Origin: Antechinus flavipes
Lineage: Eukaryota
Length of the DNA stretch: 64,000 bases
Reading direction: 5' to 3'
Assembly (NCBI RefSeq): GCF_016432865.1
Contig: NC_067400.1
Coordinates: 442,680,001 to 442,744,000, forward strand
A model generated the notes under the pieces. It had not been told where the DNA came from and did no database searches. It saw nothing but the letters and a program-made list of their open reading frames with translations. This document shows positions 12,171 through 49,395 of the stretch, one piece after another (positions within the stretch are counted from its first letter, which is position 1; every line of letters starts with the position of its first letter). The position numbers were made by a program, and so were the translations under genes.

Positions 12171-13762
12171 CTGCTGGAAAAATTGAAAATTAGTATGGCA
12201 GAAACTAGGCATTGATCCAAACTTAACATCATATACCAAGATAAGGTTAACATGGGTTCATAATTTAGGCATAAAGAATGAGATTATAAATAAATTAGAA
12301 AAACATAAGATAGTTTATTTCTCAGACCTGTGGAGGAGGAAGGAATTTGTGACCAAAGAAGAACCAAAGATCATTATTGATCACAAAATAGAAAATTTTG
12401 ATTATATCAAATTGGAAAGCTTTTATAAAAACAAAACTAATGCAGACAAGATTAGAAGGGAAACAATAAACTGGGAAATCATTTTTACATTTAAAGGTTC
12501 TGATAAAAGCCTCATTTCTAAAATATATAGAGAATTAATTCAAATTTATAAGAAGTCAAGCCATTCTCCAATTAATAAATGGTCAAAGGATATGAACAAT
12601 TTTCAGATGAAGAAATTGAAAGTATTTCTAGCCATATGAAAAGATGTTCCAAGTCATTATTAATCAGAGAAATGCAAATTAAGACAACTCTGAGATATCA
12701 CTACATACCTCTCAGACTGGCTAGGATGACAGGAAATGATAATGCAGAATGTTGGAGGGGATATGGGAAAATTGGGACACTGGTACATTGTTGGTAGAAT
12801 TGTGACCGGATCCAACCATTCTGAAGAGCAATTTGGAACTATGCTCAAAAAGTTATCAACATGTATAGGACTGCTTGCCATCTGGGAGAGGGGGTGGAGG
12901 GAGGGAGGGGAAAAATCGGAACAGAAGTGAGTGCAAGGGATAATGTTGTAAAAAATTACCCTGGCATGGGTTCTGTCAATAAAAAGTTATTAAATAAAAA
13001 AAAGTTATCAAACTGTACATACCCTTTGATCCAGCAGTGTTACTACTGGGCTTATCTCCGAAAGAGATCTTAAAGAAGGGAAAGGGACCTGTATGTGCAA
13101 AAATGTTTGTGGCAGCCCTCTTTGTAGTGGTCAGAAACTGGAAATTGAATGGATGCCCATCAATTGGAGAACGGCTGAATAAGTTGTGGTATGTGAGTGT
13201 TATGGAATATTATTGTTCTGTAAGGCCTGGAGAGACTTACATGAACTGATGCTGAGTAAGATGAGCAGAACCAGGAGATCAATACTTCAACAACACCACT
13301 ATATGATGATCAATTCTAATGGATATGGCTCTCTTCAACAATGAGATGAACCAAATCAGTTCCATTTGTTCAATAATGAAGAGAACCAGCTACACCCAGC
13401 AAAAGAACTATGGGAAATGAGTGTGAACCACAACATAGCATTTCCACTCCCTCTGTTTTTTTCCATTTGCATTTTTGTTTTCCTCAGGTTATTTTTATCT
13501 TAGTTCTAAGTCCATTTTTTTTTTTTTGCGCAACAAAATAACTATATGGATATATATACATATAATGTATTTAACATATACGTTAACATATTTAACATGT
13601 ATTGGTCTACCTGCCATCTAGGGGAAGAGGTAGGGGGAAGGAGGGGAAAAGTTGGAACAGAAAGTTTTACAAGGGTCAATGCTGAAAAATTACCCATACA
13701 TATATTTTTTAAATAAAAAGCTATATTTAAAAAGGGGAGGGGGGACATCAGTAAAAAAAAAG
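12171..13762 (+). mobile_element. 5'-truncated L1 (ORF2 C-terminal part + 3'UTR), inactivated, carrying a nested L1
   Basis: ORF-track fragments such as KTTLRYHYIPLRLARM...CWRGYGKIGTLVHCW and GCPSIGERLNKLWY are L1 ORF2 motifs. Frameshifted. Imperfect TSD AAAAAGAAGTTTTA (12157) / AAAAAGAAATTGTA (13763). Confidence 0.92.
12860..12998 (+). mobile_element. 139-bp young L1 3' terminus nested in an older L1, 13-bp TSD
   Basis: AAAAAGTTATCAA at 12847-12859 and 12999-13011. The host L1 reads continuously once the insert is removed. Confidence 0.92.
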
Positions 13763-41106: not shown

Positions 41107-41239
41107 NNNNNNNNNNNNNNNNNNNNNNNNNNNNNNNNNNNNNNNNNNNNNNNNNNNNNNNNNNNNNNNNNNNNNNNNNNNNNNNNNNNNNNNNNNNNNN
41201 NNNNNNNNNNNNNNNNNNNNNNNNNNNNNNNNNNNNNNN
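41107..41239. other. Assembly gap (133 N)
   Basis: Run of N. Confidence 1.
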
Positions 41240-44580: not shown

Positions 44581-45542
44581 AACCAATCTCAATAAGAGTT
44601 AAGTTCAAACATTGCCCACAACCCTCCATCCTTCATTTTCCTCTCCACTGTGTGCCTCTGAGTGATCTGTGGATTTTTTTTTTCAATGTCTTACTCTTTT
44701 TCAATGTCTTCTAGGATAGAAGAGCACTTTTCTTTGATAAAGAAAGTTAAGGTGCTTCCCATGAAATATTCCCTGATTGTCCTAGTCATTATTTTGGTCA
44801 TATATCTAATATGAGCTTGCATAAGTAAGTTATTCTGATCTGTAAACATGTCATATCCCTCTAGTAGAACATAAGCTCTCTGAGGGGAGTGATCAAATTT
44901 AGAGAGATATCAACTAAGTTTTTCAAGTCACATAATTTCAGTTAGAAAGGATCTCAGTAGCCATAATAAATTATGCATGCTCAAAAGGAGTTGCAACTAT
45001 AACGGACCCTTAAGTTGTCATCCAAATTCCACTTGAAGACGACCAATGAGAGAAAATTCATTTCTCTTTTGCACATCTCTAAGGAAAAAAATTTGTTATA
45101 TTGGAAAAAAATTCCCCCTCTAGCAATCAGGCCATTTGCTGGAGCTCCCTCTTCTTTCTTCATCTTCATTAGACTAACTCTTGTTATTTTCCTCCATTGT
45201 TTCCTCTTTGACTTTTCTCTCCAATAAAAATGTTTACCTTCTCACTAAGTCCAACTCTTCTATAGGTACCCTTGATCCTATCTCCTCTCATCATCTGATA
45301 GATTATCTCCACTATTTTCCTCTTCCACTCTCTTATTTTTGGTCTATTCTTATGACTACTTTCTACCTTGCTGCCTCCAGCACAATAATGTCTCTTTCAT
45401 CCTTAAAAAAAATATTAGAGATCTTACTATTCTTCAAAATTTTGTCCTTCATCTTTACTCTCTTTGTCAACCAAATTTCTAGAAAAAGTGCACATTGATT
45501 TTGCCTGAACTTCTTTGATTCTCTCTTTTATAAACCACCTGT

Positions 45543-45901
45543 TGTTGGAATCCTTACTAACTGCTAAGTAATTAGAGTTGATCTAATCTTACAAGAAGAT
45601 GTTTTGGGCAGAACCTGAAACAAGGTACTAAGTAGAACTACCCATAATCCCTCTCTCTGGAAGGAGCATAAATAGGCCAATGGGCCAGTCGGAGAGTTCT
45701 GGAGAGAGGAAGACGCTACAAGTCGAGATTTCACCGGAATGACATGAAGACTGGAGCTGGCTGGAGGCTGAAGAAAGCAGAGGCAGAGGCTGAAGGACAG
45801 AACCTTTGGATTTGGAGATATTCGGAGGGCTCTAAGCTAAACCGGCTTTGTTTTGAGAAGAACAAGAACAGATTCAGATCCATCTGAACTAGATCACAAC
45901 A
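45543..45901 (+). repeat. 5' LTR
   Basis: TGTTGG...CAACA, 358/359 identical to the 3' LTR. TATA-like CATAAATA at ~45667. Confidence 0.97.
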
Positions 45902-45904
45902 TTT

Positions 45905-45924
45905 TGGCGCCCTGAACGTGGGAC
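45905..45924 (+). promoter_or_regulatory. Primer-binding site, tRNA-Lys-like but imperfect
   Basis: TGGCGCCCTGAACGTGGGAC, 3 nt after the LTR. Compare Lys3 PBS TGGCGCCCGAACAGGGAC and Lys1,2 PBS TGGCGCCCAACGTGGGGC. Confidence 0.85.
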
Positions 45925-45947
45925 TAACAGACCCCTCAGTGGATTTC

Positions 45948-46009
45948 AGTGGAAAAGCTACGATCCTGATTCAAGTGGAAAAGCCTCTGATCCTGATCCA
46001 GTGGAAAAG
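45948..46009 (+). repeat. Three AGTGGAAAAG motifs at 26-bp spacing in the proviral leader
   Basis: Motifs at 45948, 45974 and 46000, with GATCCTGAT between them (45962, 45989). Confidence 0.9.
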
Positions 46010-46026
46010 ACTTCAACCCAGAAATT

Positions 46027-46035
46027 AGGGTGAGT
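46027..46035 (+). promoter_or_regulatory. Proviral major splice donor
   Basis: AGG|GTGAGT consensus 5' splice site in the leader upstream of gag (GT at 46030). Confidence 0.7.
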
Positions 46036-46083
46036 GCAACAAAGAAATTTTGTTAGAAGAGTTAAAGTAGAATTTCAGCTAAG

Positions 46084-47754
46084 ATGGGACAGATATTTAG
46101 AAAACAGCCTGTTTCTGTTCAAGGAAAATGTTTAGAGAGCATTGTCAAAGTTATGGAAAGCCAAGGTTTAATTATAAGTTTACAGCAAATCACTGAACTT
46201 TTACAAACTATAAAGGACATATGTCCTTGTTTCTCTCTTGATAAGGAATTAGATCTAAATGAATGGAAATTGGTTGGAGAGGATCTTTGTCAATTCTATG
46301 ATAAAAATGGGCCTAACTCAATAATTAATACATATAATGTAATACAATTGGCTATAAGAAGTTATTTAAGTGATAGAATGATGAAAAGGAAAGTACAGGA
46401 GGAAGAAATGCCAACTTTACTAGGTGAAAAGGAGGACGAATCAGATGAGAATGGAGTTAATTACAATTCTGAGTATGATACTTCACAGCAGGAGGAATTA
46501 GGTGATTCCACATCTCATGACCCTCCCCCCGCAATTAACCCTTCATGGGTGGAACAAGGGGGAGGGAGAGAGGCAGAAACACAGTCAGCTTCTCCTATAA
46601 AGCAGAATTTGAAAGCAAAAAATGAAGGAGAAGATATATCTGATTTTATAAATGCATATCCTGTGATTGAAAAGATTGACTCTTCAGCTCAAAAAGAGAG
46701 AAAATACACTCCTTTTAATTTGGAAAAAGTTAAAGATTTGAAAAAGGGTTGCACTCTTTATGGGGCTACATCATCTTATGTGAAGATGTTACTGGATAAT
46801 TTGTCTTATGAAATCCTAACCCCGAATGACTGGAAATCCATAGTGAAAACTTGTCTAGAACCGGGACAAAATTTATTGTGGCTTTCGGAGTTTCATGAAT
46901 TATGTAGGATTCAAGCCCAACGCAATAGGCAAACAGGAGCTATTGTACAAGTTGCTTTTAACCAACTAGCTGGTGAAGGTCAGTATGCAGAGAGTTCAGA
47001 ACAGATTTATTATCCCATAACAGTGTATGAGCAAATTTCTAAGGCTGCAATAAAAGCTTGGAATTCTCTCCCTGGACAGAAAGATGGAAATAATGTTTTC
47101 ACAAAAATAGAGCAAGGTCCCAATGAACCTTTTGCAGATTTTGTGGGACGTTTACAAACAGCTGTAATAAGAACCATTGGAGACAATGCAGCAACAGAAA
47201 TAATGACTAGACATTTGGCTAAGGAAAATGCCAATGAGGTTTGCAAAAGAATTATATGGGGGCTAGACAAAGATGCTCCTTTAGAAGAAATCATAAGATG
47301 CTGTGCCACAGTGGGCACAAATGCTTATTATGCCCAGACTATGATGAACATGGAAAGACAAGGTCCTTCTTGGCAGAGGAATTCTAGAGAAACTCGTCGA
47401 TGTTTTCATTGTGGAAAAGTTGGACATTTGAGAGCTCATTGTAGATATGGAGATAGAGTGAGAAGACAGGGTGAGAGAAAACCTAAAACCCCATGTCCAA
47501 AATGTACCCGAGGCTTTCATTGGGCCTCTAAATGTATATTGACCCAGAAGAATGAGAGGCAGGGCCCAGCTCCAAAGTATCAATCAAAGGACAGGTGGGG
47601 CATGATAGCAGCTGAGGTTACACCCAGAGAGACTTTAGAAATTCAGAACTCTGATGTCATCAACCAACAGAAAAGCAATCAGGATTACAGTTGGGAAGAA
47701 TACAGGCCTTTTAAGACAACAAGACAATATCCAATGCAAACAGCTCCAATGTAA
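46084..47754 (+). CDS. gag: Betaretrovirus-like Gag polyprotein, 556 aa, uninterrupted
   Basis: MGQ myristoylation start. Matrix-like CPCF...LDLNEWKLVG. Capsid LTPNDWK and MHR IEQGPNEPFADFVGRL (from 47104). Two intact CCHC knuckles: CFHCGKVGHLRAHC (47401-47442) and CPKCTRGFHWASKC (47494-47535). Confidence 0.96.
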   Translation: MGQIFRKQPVSVQGKCLESIVKVMESQGLIISLQQITELLQTIKDICPCFSLDKELDLNEWKLVGEDLCQFYDKNGPNSIINTYNVIQLAIRSYLSDRMMKRKVQEEEMPTLLGEKEDESDENGVNYNSEYDTSQQEELGDSTSHDPPPAINPSWVEQGGGREAETQSASPIKQNLKAKNEGEDISDFINAYPVIEKIDSSAQKERKYTPFNLEKVKDLKKGCTLYGATSSYVKMLLDNLSYEILTPNDWKSIVKTCLEPGQNLLWLSEFHELCRIQAQRNRQTGAIVQVAFNQLAGEGQYAESSEQIYYPITVYEQISKAAIKAWNSLPGQKDGNNVFTKIEQGPNEPFADFVGRLQTAVIRTIGDNAATEIMTRHLAKENANEVCKRIIWGLDKDAPLEEIIRCCATVGTNAYYAQTMMNMERQGPSWQRNSRETRRCFHCGKVGHLRAHCRYGDRVRRQGERKPKTPCPKCTRGFHWASKCILTQKNERQGPAPKYQSKDRWGMIAAEVTPRETLEIQNSDVINQQKSNQDYSWEEYRPFKTTRQYPMQTAPM

Positions 47755-47761
47755 TTACCAG

Positions 47762-47880
47762 ATGATGAGGAGAAATCCCAAAAGTGGTAAATAGAAGAGA
47801 ATTAGATAGGTTAACTGCTTGGGGAAGAGGATCTGCTTATATTTCCACAGGTGGAAAAGGAATCAGATGGCTAACAATGA
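47762..47880 (+). pseudogene. Integrase C-terminal remnant with a stop codon and a frameshift
   Basis: MMRRNPKSGK*K, then in the next frame ELDRLTAWGRGSAYISTGGKGIRWL, matching the betaretroviral IN C-terminal pattern WKGPD..WGRG(F/Y)AC(V/I)S....RW. Contains acceptor TATATTTCCACAG|G (AG at 47849-47850). Confidence 0.8.
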
Positions 47881-48274
47881 GACTGTCAAAAGAACTTTAA
47901 AATCTTCAGCTTTCAGTTCCTGAAAAACCAGCAAGAATCACTGGATTCCCTGAGATGAAAAATTGTTGATGAGACTTTTTGCAGTACTTCAGAGCTTACA
48001 GGAATTATTAGATTCCTGGCACATGAACTAATGGACAATGGAATCCTATTGGACTGTTTCTAGGACTTATGGACATGTGTAAATTTTCAGGATGATTCAT
48101 TTTATTTGTTACATTACTACTAGCCTGTGTTATATTGCTATGTGCTCATGTAAATTATGTATAATGCCTCCCATATTGATGGATTTATGTATACCATGTA
48201 TATCTGTTACAAAGTTCTGGCCCATATTGATGGATTTATGTGTACCCCCTCAGAAACCCCCTATGTTTTAAAAC

Positions 48275-48290
48275 AAAAGAAAGGGGGAGA
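48275..48290 (+). promoter_or_regulatory. Polypurine tract
   Basis: AAAAGAAAGGGGGAGA directly before the 3' LTR. Confidence 0.95.
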
Positions 48291-48649
48291 TGTTGGAATC
48301 CTTACTAACTGCTAAGTAATTAGAGTTGATCTAATCTTACAAGAAGATGTTTTGGGCAGAACCTGAAACAAGGTACTAAGTAGAACTACCCATAATCCCT
48401 CTCTCTGGAAGGAGCATAAATAGGCCAATGGGCCAGTCGGAGAGTTCTGGAGAGAGGAAGATGCTACAAGTCGAGATTTCACCGGAATGACATGAAGACT
48501 GGAGCTGGCTGGAGGCTGAAGAAAGCAGAGGCAGAGGCTGAAGGACAGAACCTTTGGATTTGGAGATATTCGGAGGGCTCTAAGCTAAACCGGCTTTGTT
48601 TTGAGAAGAACAAGAACAGATTCAGATCCATCTGAACTAGATCACAACA
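48291..48649 (+). repeat. 3' LTR
   Basis: Identical to the 5' LTR except T at 48462 versus C at 45714 (a CpG transition). Confidence 0.97.
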
Positions 48650-49395
48650 ACCTGTAATATGACATCTGATCTTATCTCTCAATTGAAATACTCTCCAAAA
48701 TTGGCATTGATTTTTTAATTGACAAACATAACTTTTCCTAACTCTTTTCCTTCTTGACTCCTCTAATTTATTTTAAATTGTTAGTACTCTTTTTCTCTAT
48801 ATACTTTTTAACCTCTGGGGTTTTGTGACATTGTTCTCTCTGATTCTCATATCTGTATGGCCCCTCCTCAATCTCCTTTGCTTGATTTTAATCTATGTCA
48901 TACTTAACTGTGAGTATAGCCCAAGACTTTATACTGAATCCTCTTCTTTTTTCTATTCTCTCAGAGATTTCATGGGTTTAATTCTCATCTCCATATCTCC
49001 ATGCTCAGATTCACAACTCCCTTCCGAGGGTCTCTTCAGATATTGCTCAGCTGTCATATCTGCCAGTTCTTTCATTACCCATGGAGATAGTTCATCTGAG
49101 TTGGGTGGTTATAATTCATCAAGAACAACTAGATACTTTTTTATCATCACCATACTTTTTTGGGTATCGATCCCAATTAGCAATTTTTGCTCTGTCTTTC
49201 CAGTGCAATAATGATAAAAGTAGCTTATTAGCTAAAACTGACCGTCTAGTTAGGAATATAGTTCAAGTTCAAACCTGGCTGAGTGACCTTAGGCACATTC
49301 AATCATTCAATGTTCTAACAAGTTTCAGGGAAGATGCTAATCTGTACCAAGGAATTTGAACAGAAGAATAACATAGTTATACCTATCACCTTAAT

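Follow-up and report, generated by a model that had tools for sequence, protein, structure and literature searches.

Gag-only long terminal repeat (LTR) elements are already known from plants and zebrafish. The plant TR-GAG elements are multicopy and shorter than 4 kb, and they carry LTRs, a primer-binding site (PBS), a polypurine tract (PPT), a target-site duplication (TSD) and gag alone (PMC4350172). Zebrafish BHIKHARI elements (Bik-1 and Bik-2) have LTRs and a single gag open reading frame (ORF), lack pol and env, were recently mobile and need a partner (PMC12067270, where chicken ENS-1 is also treated alongside them). A provirus of this type lies at positions 45,543–48,649 of the stretch analyzed here, 64,000 nt of Antechinus flavipes DNA (assembly GCF_016432865.1, contig NC_067400.1, positions 442,680,001–442,744,000 of the forward strand; hereafter the window). 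Probably, it inserted recently and belongs to an old dasyurid LTR family, gag-only and high in copy number, with a gag under selection and with enzymes likely borrowed from MEBrv3, an endogenous retrovirus (ERV) family. Notable here are the age of the lineage, its copy number, the measured selection, the identification of a likely helper and a candidate capsid-deleted sub-parasite.

The described systems differ from this one in several respects. TR-GAG elements are Copia- or Gypsy-derived, have a 5-bp TSD and many independent origins, and no helper was found for TR-GAG1 (PMC4350172). BHIKHARI elements are related to Lokiretrovirus and number 196 and 393 insertions; the Bik-1 partner was not identified, a host role was shown, and the term 'purifying selection' is absent from the main text (PMC12067270). 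Most mammalian non-autonomous ERVs compared, as far as the cited accounts go, are either non-coding (ETn, bovine D-type, deer-mouse ERVK) or deletion forms within the family of their helper (IAP I-delta-1) (see also PMC10089650; PMC5538554). The ERVK[2-1-LTR] D-type of cattle (PMC10924933) and mouse ETn/MusD are similar in that a non-autonomous form outnumbers its helper and recombinants occur, although the bovine D-type has no intact ORF and supplies no Gag (PMC10924933). Mouse intracisternal A-particle (IAP) I-delta-1 is likewise a class II, env-less, non-autonomous and very successful element with an in-frame gag-pol fusion deletion and a fusion protein that acts in cis, but part of its gag is gone, both Gag and Pol must come in trans, and it is a deletion variant inside the IAP family (review PMC6466679). 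The window provirus shows the same kind of in-frame fusion, with 17 integrase (IN)-derived codons closing its ORF. Unlike I-delta-1, its gag is complete and has diverged from that of the helper (capsid 65% identical) under selection, and only a subfamily with 176 genome matches lacks part of the capsid.

MEBrv3 shares with the window provirus a homologous gag, the IN end, the PPT and a 3′ region with a trace of the env immunosuppressive domain (ISD); both are env-less and dasyurid. It differs in having gag-pro-pol, a length of ~7–7.3 kb and another LTR. An ISD remnant after pol is described for MEBrv3, and its clades were built from ERVs longer than 6 kb; the main text contains none of 'nonautonomous', 'non-autonomous' or 'in trans', and no non-autonomous MEBrv3 form was found there (PMC11334065). 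No description of a marsupial gag-only family was found among the open-literature matches listed, and a Repbase or Dfam entry may exist.

A gag-only provirus and its family

The provirus spans 3,107 bp with ACCTGT on both flanks (6-bp TSD), and its LTRs are identical at 358 of 359 positions. A preliminary description, made from the letters of the window, had proposed a complete ~3.1-kb provirus with LTRs differing at one site; that difference was reproduced, and the TSD, LTRs, PBS and PPT were all located directly in the sequence. The features are as follows.

45537..45542, + strand: 5′ TSD ACCTGT, repeated at 48650–48655
45543..45901, + strand: 5′ LTR of 359 bp, TG...CA; LTR length is ~360–570 bp across the family
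45905..45924, + strand: PBS, a variant that we take to be Lys-type; three PBS types segregate in the family
46030..46035, + strand: GTGAGT resembling a splice donor, within the leader and shared by the MEBrv3 relative; putative function
46084..47754, + strand: gag ORF with matrix, capsid with the major homology region (MHR) and two CCHC knuckles (ORF list, Pfam, PDB matches)
47547..47553, + strand: site of the MEBrv3 gag-pro frameshift heptamer, which is absent (alignment to the relative)
47702..47883, + strand: IN C-terminal remnant, joined at the former gag stop; the first 17 codons, in frame, are the Gag tail and the rest is broken by shared lesions
47884..48274, + strand: 3′ non-coding region with homology to its MEBrv3 counterpart; at ~48031–48075 it holds a decayed ISD-like trace of env
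48275..48290, + strand: PPT; the surrounding 34 nt are 91% identical to MEBrv3
48291..48649, + strand: 3′ LTR of 359 bp, one mismatch with the 5′ LTR
48650..48655, + strand: 3′ TSD ACCTGT, repeat of 45537–45542

The provirus is thus a gag-only LTR element of less than 4 kb, with LTRs, PBS, PPT and TSD, which codes for a single ORF (Gag) and no enzymes. The 556-aa Gag exceeded the Pfam cut-offs for Gag_p10, Gag_p24 and Gag_p24_C, whereas zf-CCHC_5 scored below its cut-off (E 9e-4); the best PDB matches were betaretroviral and HERV-K capsid structures, and the closest proteins were from Sminthopsis and Sarcophilus. These betaretroviral domains (p10, p24, CCHC knuckles) agree with the MEBrv3 lineage of class II ERVs, as do the homologous gag, IN end and 3′ region, the ISD trace and the lack of env. 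Autonomous MEBrv3 has gag, pro and pol ORFs in ~7.3 kb; the window provirus, with 3.1 kb and no reverse transcriptase (RT), is an MEBrv3 derivative and not an autonomous member. Gly2, the MHR and both knuckles are retained, as the preliminary description stated. Its myristoylation site fared less well: residue 6 is Arg, which we take to be atypical of the signal consensus, so that myristoylation is putative at most.

Lost in the deletion were pro, RT and the greater part of IN; the join lies at the relative's gag stop codon and leads, in frame, into the linker before the IN C-terminal domain. Gag is complete up to the helper's stop position. A relative's Pol matched the window by tblastn at 47805–47873 (E 1.6e-5), and Pfam IN_DBD_C gave a weak match on the remnant (E 0.14). 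The rest of the 64-kb window held no further retroviral enzyme sequence, and an Rfam scan of the window gave no match. The stop and frameshift previously seen in the remnant are there, but the remnant is ~185 bp long (47702–47883) rather than ~120 bp and begins inside the ORF. Both lesions are common to family copies and hence older than the insertion, as had been argued from the near-identity of the LTRs. Trp-to-stop and other G-to-A changes were also observed in the remnant. The gag-only gag (46084–47754) is richer in A than that of the MEBrv3-type locus L086 (37% vs. 32%), and CpG is scarcer (9 in the gag-only copy L064 vs. 17 in L086).

A 23-mer spanning the gag/IN junction had at least 1,973 exact matches in the genome, and a 27-mer over the IN-remnant lesion at least 2,037, with 0 for the control in each case. 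A search with the 3′ internal region returned 2,628 candidates, and the 40 that were scored were all full length at 97–100%. We fetched 19 of the top matches, one further close match and 60 of the first 100 listed on contig C1; genome searches throughout cover the first 100 matches or the best 150 candidates listed. Among the 60 sampled copies, 40 had two LTRs, with a median mismatch of 0.65% (range, 0–2.7%), and 32 of those 40 had a matching 6-bp TSD. Many copies therefore share one junction with independent TSDs, as the preliminary description had anticipated. The MEBrv3 gag-pro frameshift heptamer was absent in all 72 probe-matched copies (of 81), so that all translation would yield Gag.

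LTR length (~360–570 bp) and PBS type vary between copies. In copies L061–L160 we noted two tRNA-Lys-like PBS types, presumably corresponding to the two tRNA-Lys isoacceptors, and a longer hybrid, the type found at 45905–45924 of the window. Gag-only and MEBrv3 matches cluster together on contig C1 (~64–70 Mb, 86–90 Mb and 100–104 Mb), which suggests a common insertion preference or tolerance.

The lineage is older than the insertion. Among 20 loci chosen for an unbroken IN motif, six were older gag-only copies with the same junction, 69–87% identical to the window; one of them reads on through the IN end, and in the tree the six form a ladder placed between the young clade and the helper. Five dunnart proteins (P0001, P0014, P0016, P0020 and P0022; four of them 582–609 aa) finish with the 17-residue tail of the window Gag in the matching position, and the sequence of a sixth, P0004, continues through it. 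In the capsid tree, the window family groups with a devil protein and with dunnart P0001, P0003 and P0004, apart from helper-type proteins, although the node that separates them also takes in a distant turtle outgroup. The simplest reading of these data, which for the dunnart are protein sequences, would be a single deletion before the split from the fat-tailed dunnart lineage. That split dates back tens of millions of years. The earlier term 'young' thus fits the insertion and not the lineage. On near-identical capsids, dunnart gag-only proteins carry two matrix types, helper-like or window-like (P0001 vs. P0003 and P0022), which suggests matrix exchange by recombination.

Purifying selection on gag

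Selection was measured on 62 of the 81 copies, with 13 left out for want of the gag start or junction and 6 for poor alignment. Private variants, each confined to a single copy, are neutral (replacement/silent/stop, 303/104/21; N/S 2.9 vs. a neutral 2.95), whereas those in at least five copies comprised 61 replacement, 51 silent and 0 stop changes. The difference between private and shared (≥3 copies) variants was significant (p = 1.4e-5; non-CpG, p = 6e-6). With a null drawn from the mutation spectrum that shared variants show outside the coding region, in the 3′ part, 125 replacement, 45 silent and 13 stop changes were expected among variants in at least three copies and 90, 69 and 1 were observed (p = 2e-7; transitions only, p = 0.002). 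The signal stayed after removal of helper-matching alleles (p = 1e-5); the recombinant copy L132 was left out of the variant counts in this and the preceding test. Indels in at least three copies kept the frame in 4/4 cases in gag vs. 6/17 in the 3′ non-coding part; among the private gag indels, 51/66 are frame-shifting. Capsid–nucleocapsid dN/dS was 0.28–0.51, at dS 0.20–0.56, against the six older same-junction copies, which themselves carry neutral decay; a helper copy compared with a decayed helper gave 0.93. The Tyr-Pro capsid start was retained in 60 of the 62 copies, and the MHR is conserved. Gag was under purifying selection while the family spread, most strongly in the capsid, the sole domain to reach significance (p = 1e-4). 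Shared variants short of replacements and stops, together with the copy number, bear out the earlier proposal that the deleted genome replicated as its own lineage while gag stayed open.

Most full-span copies are broken. Gag was disrupted in 28 of the 43 and open in 15, and the preliminary description had counted disruption in most copies as telling against it. Taken literally, that is what was found; most lesions are private, with one-base indels overrepresented in runs of at least four bases (16/43 vs. 10% of positions), so that these copies do not bear on selection during replication. Assembly errors may account for some of the breaks. A defective ERV of the ordinary, non-coding kind, whose open gag reflects chance and youth, would fit the two thirds of full-span copies that are broken. 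It does not fit a frame that stayed open across dS 0.2–0.56 while the adjoining IN remnant decayed, nor 1 shared stop where ~13 were expected, and this barely credible explanation is already largely refuted.

The frame may also have been kept mainly for RNA protection or routing (escape from decay, translation-coupled packaging, nucleocapsid in cis), with helper capsids doing the rest. The I-delta-1 fusion protein acts in cis (PMC6466679), and a capsid-deleted subfamily stayed in frame (176 matches; 6 of 13 full-span copies open). Replacements, however, are depleted as well as stops, most strongly in the capsid, and the MHR and capsid start are conserved. Identity to a dunnart gag-only protein is 76% in the capsid vs. 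37% in the matrix and ~49% in the linker. We regard this explanation as unlikely.

Selection might instead have acted on the host's behalf, with Gag kept for restriction of MEBrv3 or for development, few source loci selected and the copies a by-product. Zebrafish development needs the Gags of gag-only Bik-1 and Bik-2 (PMC12067270), and two dasyurid lineages have an open frame. A domesticated gag would show selection at few loci after insertion; here there are ~2,000 copies, and the private changes, those made after insertion, are neutral. In the tree, subfamilies follow one another as a ladder, as in a replicating element, and the helper amplified over the same time. Host retention is therefore very unlikely, and selection in an amplifying lineage is the reading followed below.

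MEBrv3 as the likely helper

A search with the RT thumb led to a young, env-less family of ~7 kb whose Pro and Pol, compared by eye, agree with the published MEBrv3 record. Eleven of the 20 loci match the window (IN end 76–80%, near the PPT ~90%, and, in 10 of the 11, capsid–nucleocapsid 73%); the other nine had no gag or IN match to it. Nucleotide identity between the window and these MEBrv3-type loci (L081–L091) is 73–80%. A pattern over the MEBrv3 frameshift site had at least 1,284 matches, and the first 100 listed were all MEBrv3-type. Helper LTR pairs are 98.6–100% identical (8/11 measured), so that the two families were active together.

The helper was previously expected to carry the same LTR. 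No such helper was present among the 20 RT-thumb loci; the family found, MEBrv3, has an LTR of another kind and is 73% identical in capsid/nucleocapsid. Seven matches came from a hybrid LTR/leader pattern, and all six fetched were recombinant or rearranged.

Recombinants connect the two families. In L195, gag-only-type LTRs (99.8% pair identity, 6-bp duplication) surround MEBrv3 internal sequence. L193, which has a TSD, carries a 95% helper patch at the IN end, and L132 a colinear 362-bp helper patch (96%); helper patches are also present in L123, L061 and L130. Short helper-like patches in L069 and L076 were unconfirmed by sliding windows and were not counted; L127 was likewise left out of the count. 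The combination of MEBrv3 internal sequence with a gag-only-type LTR (L195, L196 and L171) amounts to LTR swapping between the families. Such recombinants likely arose by template switching between co-packaged RNAs, and bovine ERV recombinants were likewise taken as evidence of co-packaging (PMC10924933). MEBrv3 is likely the helper of the gag-only family.

Recombination with pol-bearing elements could, in turn, mean that the selection was borrowed, from an unseen autonomous family with a near-identical gag that feeds in alleles; rare families may be missed by searches of the first 100 matches or best 150 candidates. Against this, the first 100 of the 1,284 heptamer-bearing gag matches were all MEBrv3-type, none of the 20 unbroken-IN-motif loci was a pol-bearing element with a gag near the gag-only family, and the signal stays without helper-like alleles. 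We consider such a source highly improbable.

A pol-defective helper sub-lineage was considered as evidence of Pol in trans: one and the same 370-aa frame occurred in 9 of 84 listed helper-type matches. The break lay at a 5-base homopolymer in 8 of the 9, and the copies were scattered in the tree with no common diagnostic change. This frame was read as recurrent slippage or assembly error and was not used. Other young class II ERV families were also observed (L092–L096, L098–L100), with near-identical LTRs and long post-pol ORFs that are possible env genes; at the thresholds used they had no gag or IN match to the gag-only element.

A tentative two-part system

The family descends from a single deletion, lost the heptamer, amplified with independent TSDs, kept gag under selection and recombined with MEBrv3. 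The earlier proposal of a non-autonomous family that supplies its own Gag and borrows protease, RT and IN is supported by the copies, the selection and the recombinants; the borrowing itself we infer. Gag-only RNA would be translated wholly into Gag, and this Gag would prefer the RNA that encodes it and build intracellular particles jointly with MEBrv3 Gag-Pro-Pol. There, helper protease would cleave Gag at the conserved Tyr-Pro that starts the capsid, and the gag-only RNA would be copied by helper RT and inserted by helper IN. That stops and frameshifts are hardly ever shared suggests, from sequence comparison, that the Gag product may act in cis. A cis advantage would explain why such variants rarely spread, and it would not be absolute, because a capsid-deleted in-frame subfamily also spread.

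That subfamily is marked by an in-frame loss of 66 codons from the N-terminal domain of the capsid and has 176 exact genome matches (L077, L078, L079, L109, L146, L149 and L209–L228). Its LTRs are young, with a median mismatch of 0.47%, and it is a candidate parasite of the gag-only element.

Tentatively, and somewhat short of an even chance, we propose a stable two-part mammalian system. A satellite that lost all its enzymes in one event, with its own capsid lineage since before the dunnart split, would capture MEBrv3 Gag-Pro-Pol while favoring its own RNA, match or outnumber its helper and carry a capsid-deleted hyperparasite.

Several observations weigh against the reading of a selected gag with borrowed enzymes. 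(i) Outside the capsid, nucleocapsid gave p = 0.09, and matrix, linker and tail alone were not significant; recombination keeps shared variants from counting as independent events, so that the p-values are indicative, and the implied dN/dS of ~0.3–0.5 is only moderate. (ii) Gag is broken in those 28 of 43 full-span copies, and LTR divergence showed no difference between open and broken copies (p = 0.29). (iii) The spread of the capsid-deleted subfamily means that the whole capsid is not required in cis, and selection within that subfamily was not significant (p = 0.17, 17 copies). (iv) The helper LTR differs from that of the window, and 65% capsid identity (143/220) may hinder co-assembly; Ty1 and HIV-1 Gag are reported to have no cis preference (PMC3945221). 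(v) The window Gag lacks eight residues of the pre-capsid linker, an in-frame deletion found in no other copy (68 aligned), and this copy may not be a working source.

In RNA libraries of another organism, contigs of relatives covered 29 of 30 bins, with no silent control; one of them spans the junction and shows 17 differences over 165 bases. The RNA-run search gave small-share runs only, also from another organism.

The system combines a complete class II gag under selection across dS ~0.5, two dasyurid lineages, an identifiable helper and recombinants. The gag-only/MEBrv3 pair is a natural test of (i) whether a retroviral Gag favors its own RNA while Pol is shared; and (ii) whether capsids just 65% alike co-assemble. 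Part of the very large dasyurid load of short ERVs, credited to MEBrv3 and linked to the discussion of genome instability, may be gag-only satellite.

Elsewhere in the window, a 150-aa stop-to-stop frame at 12187–12639 resembles the end of LINE-1 ORF2 by eye, and positions 41107–41239 are a 133-base run of N.

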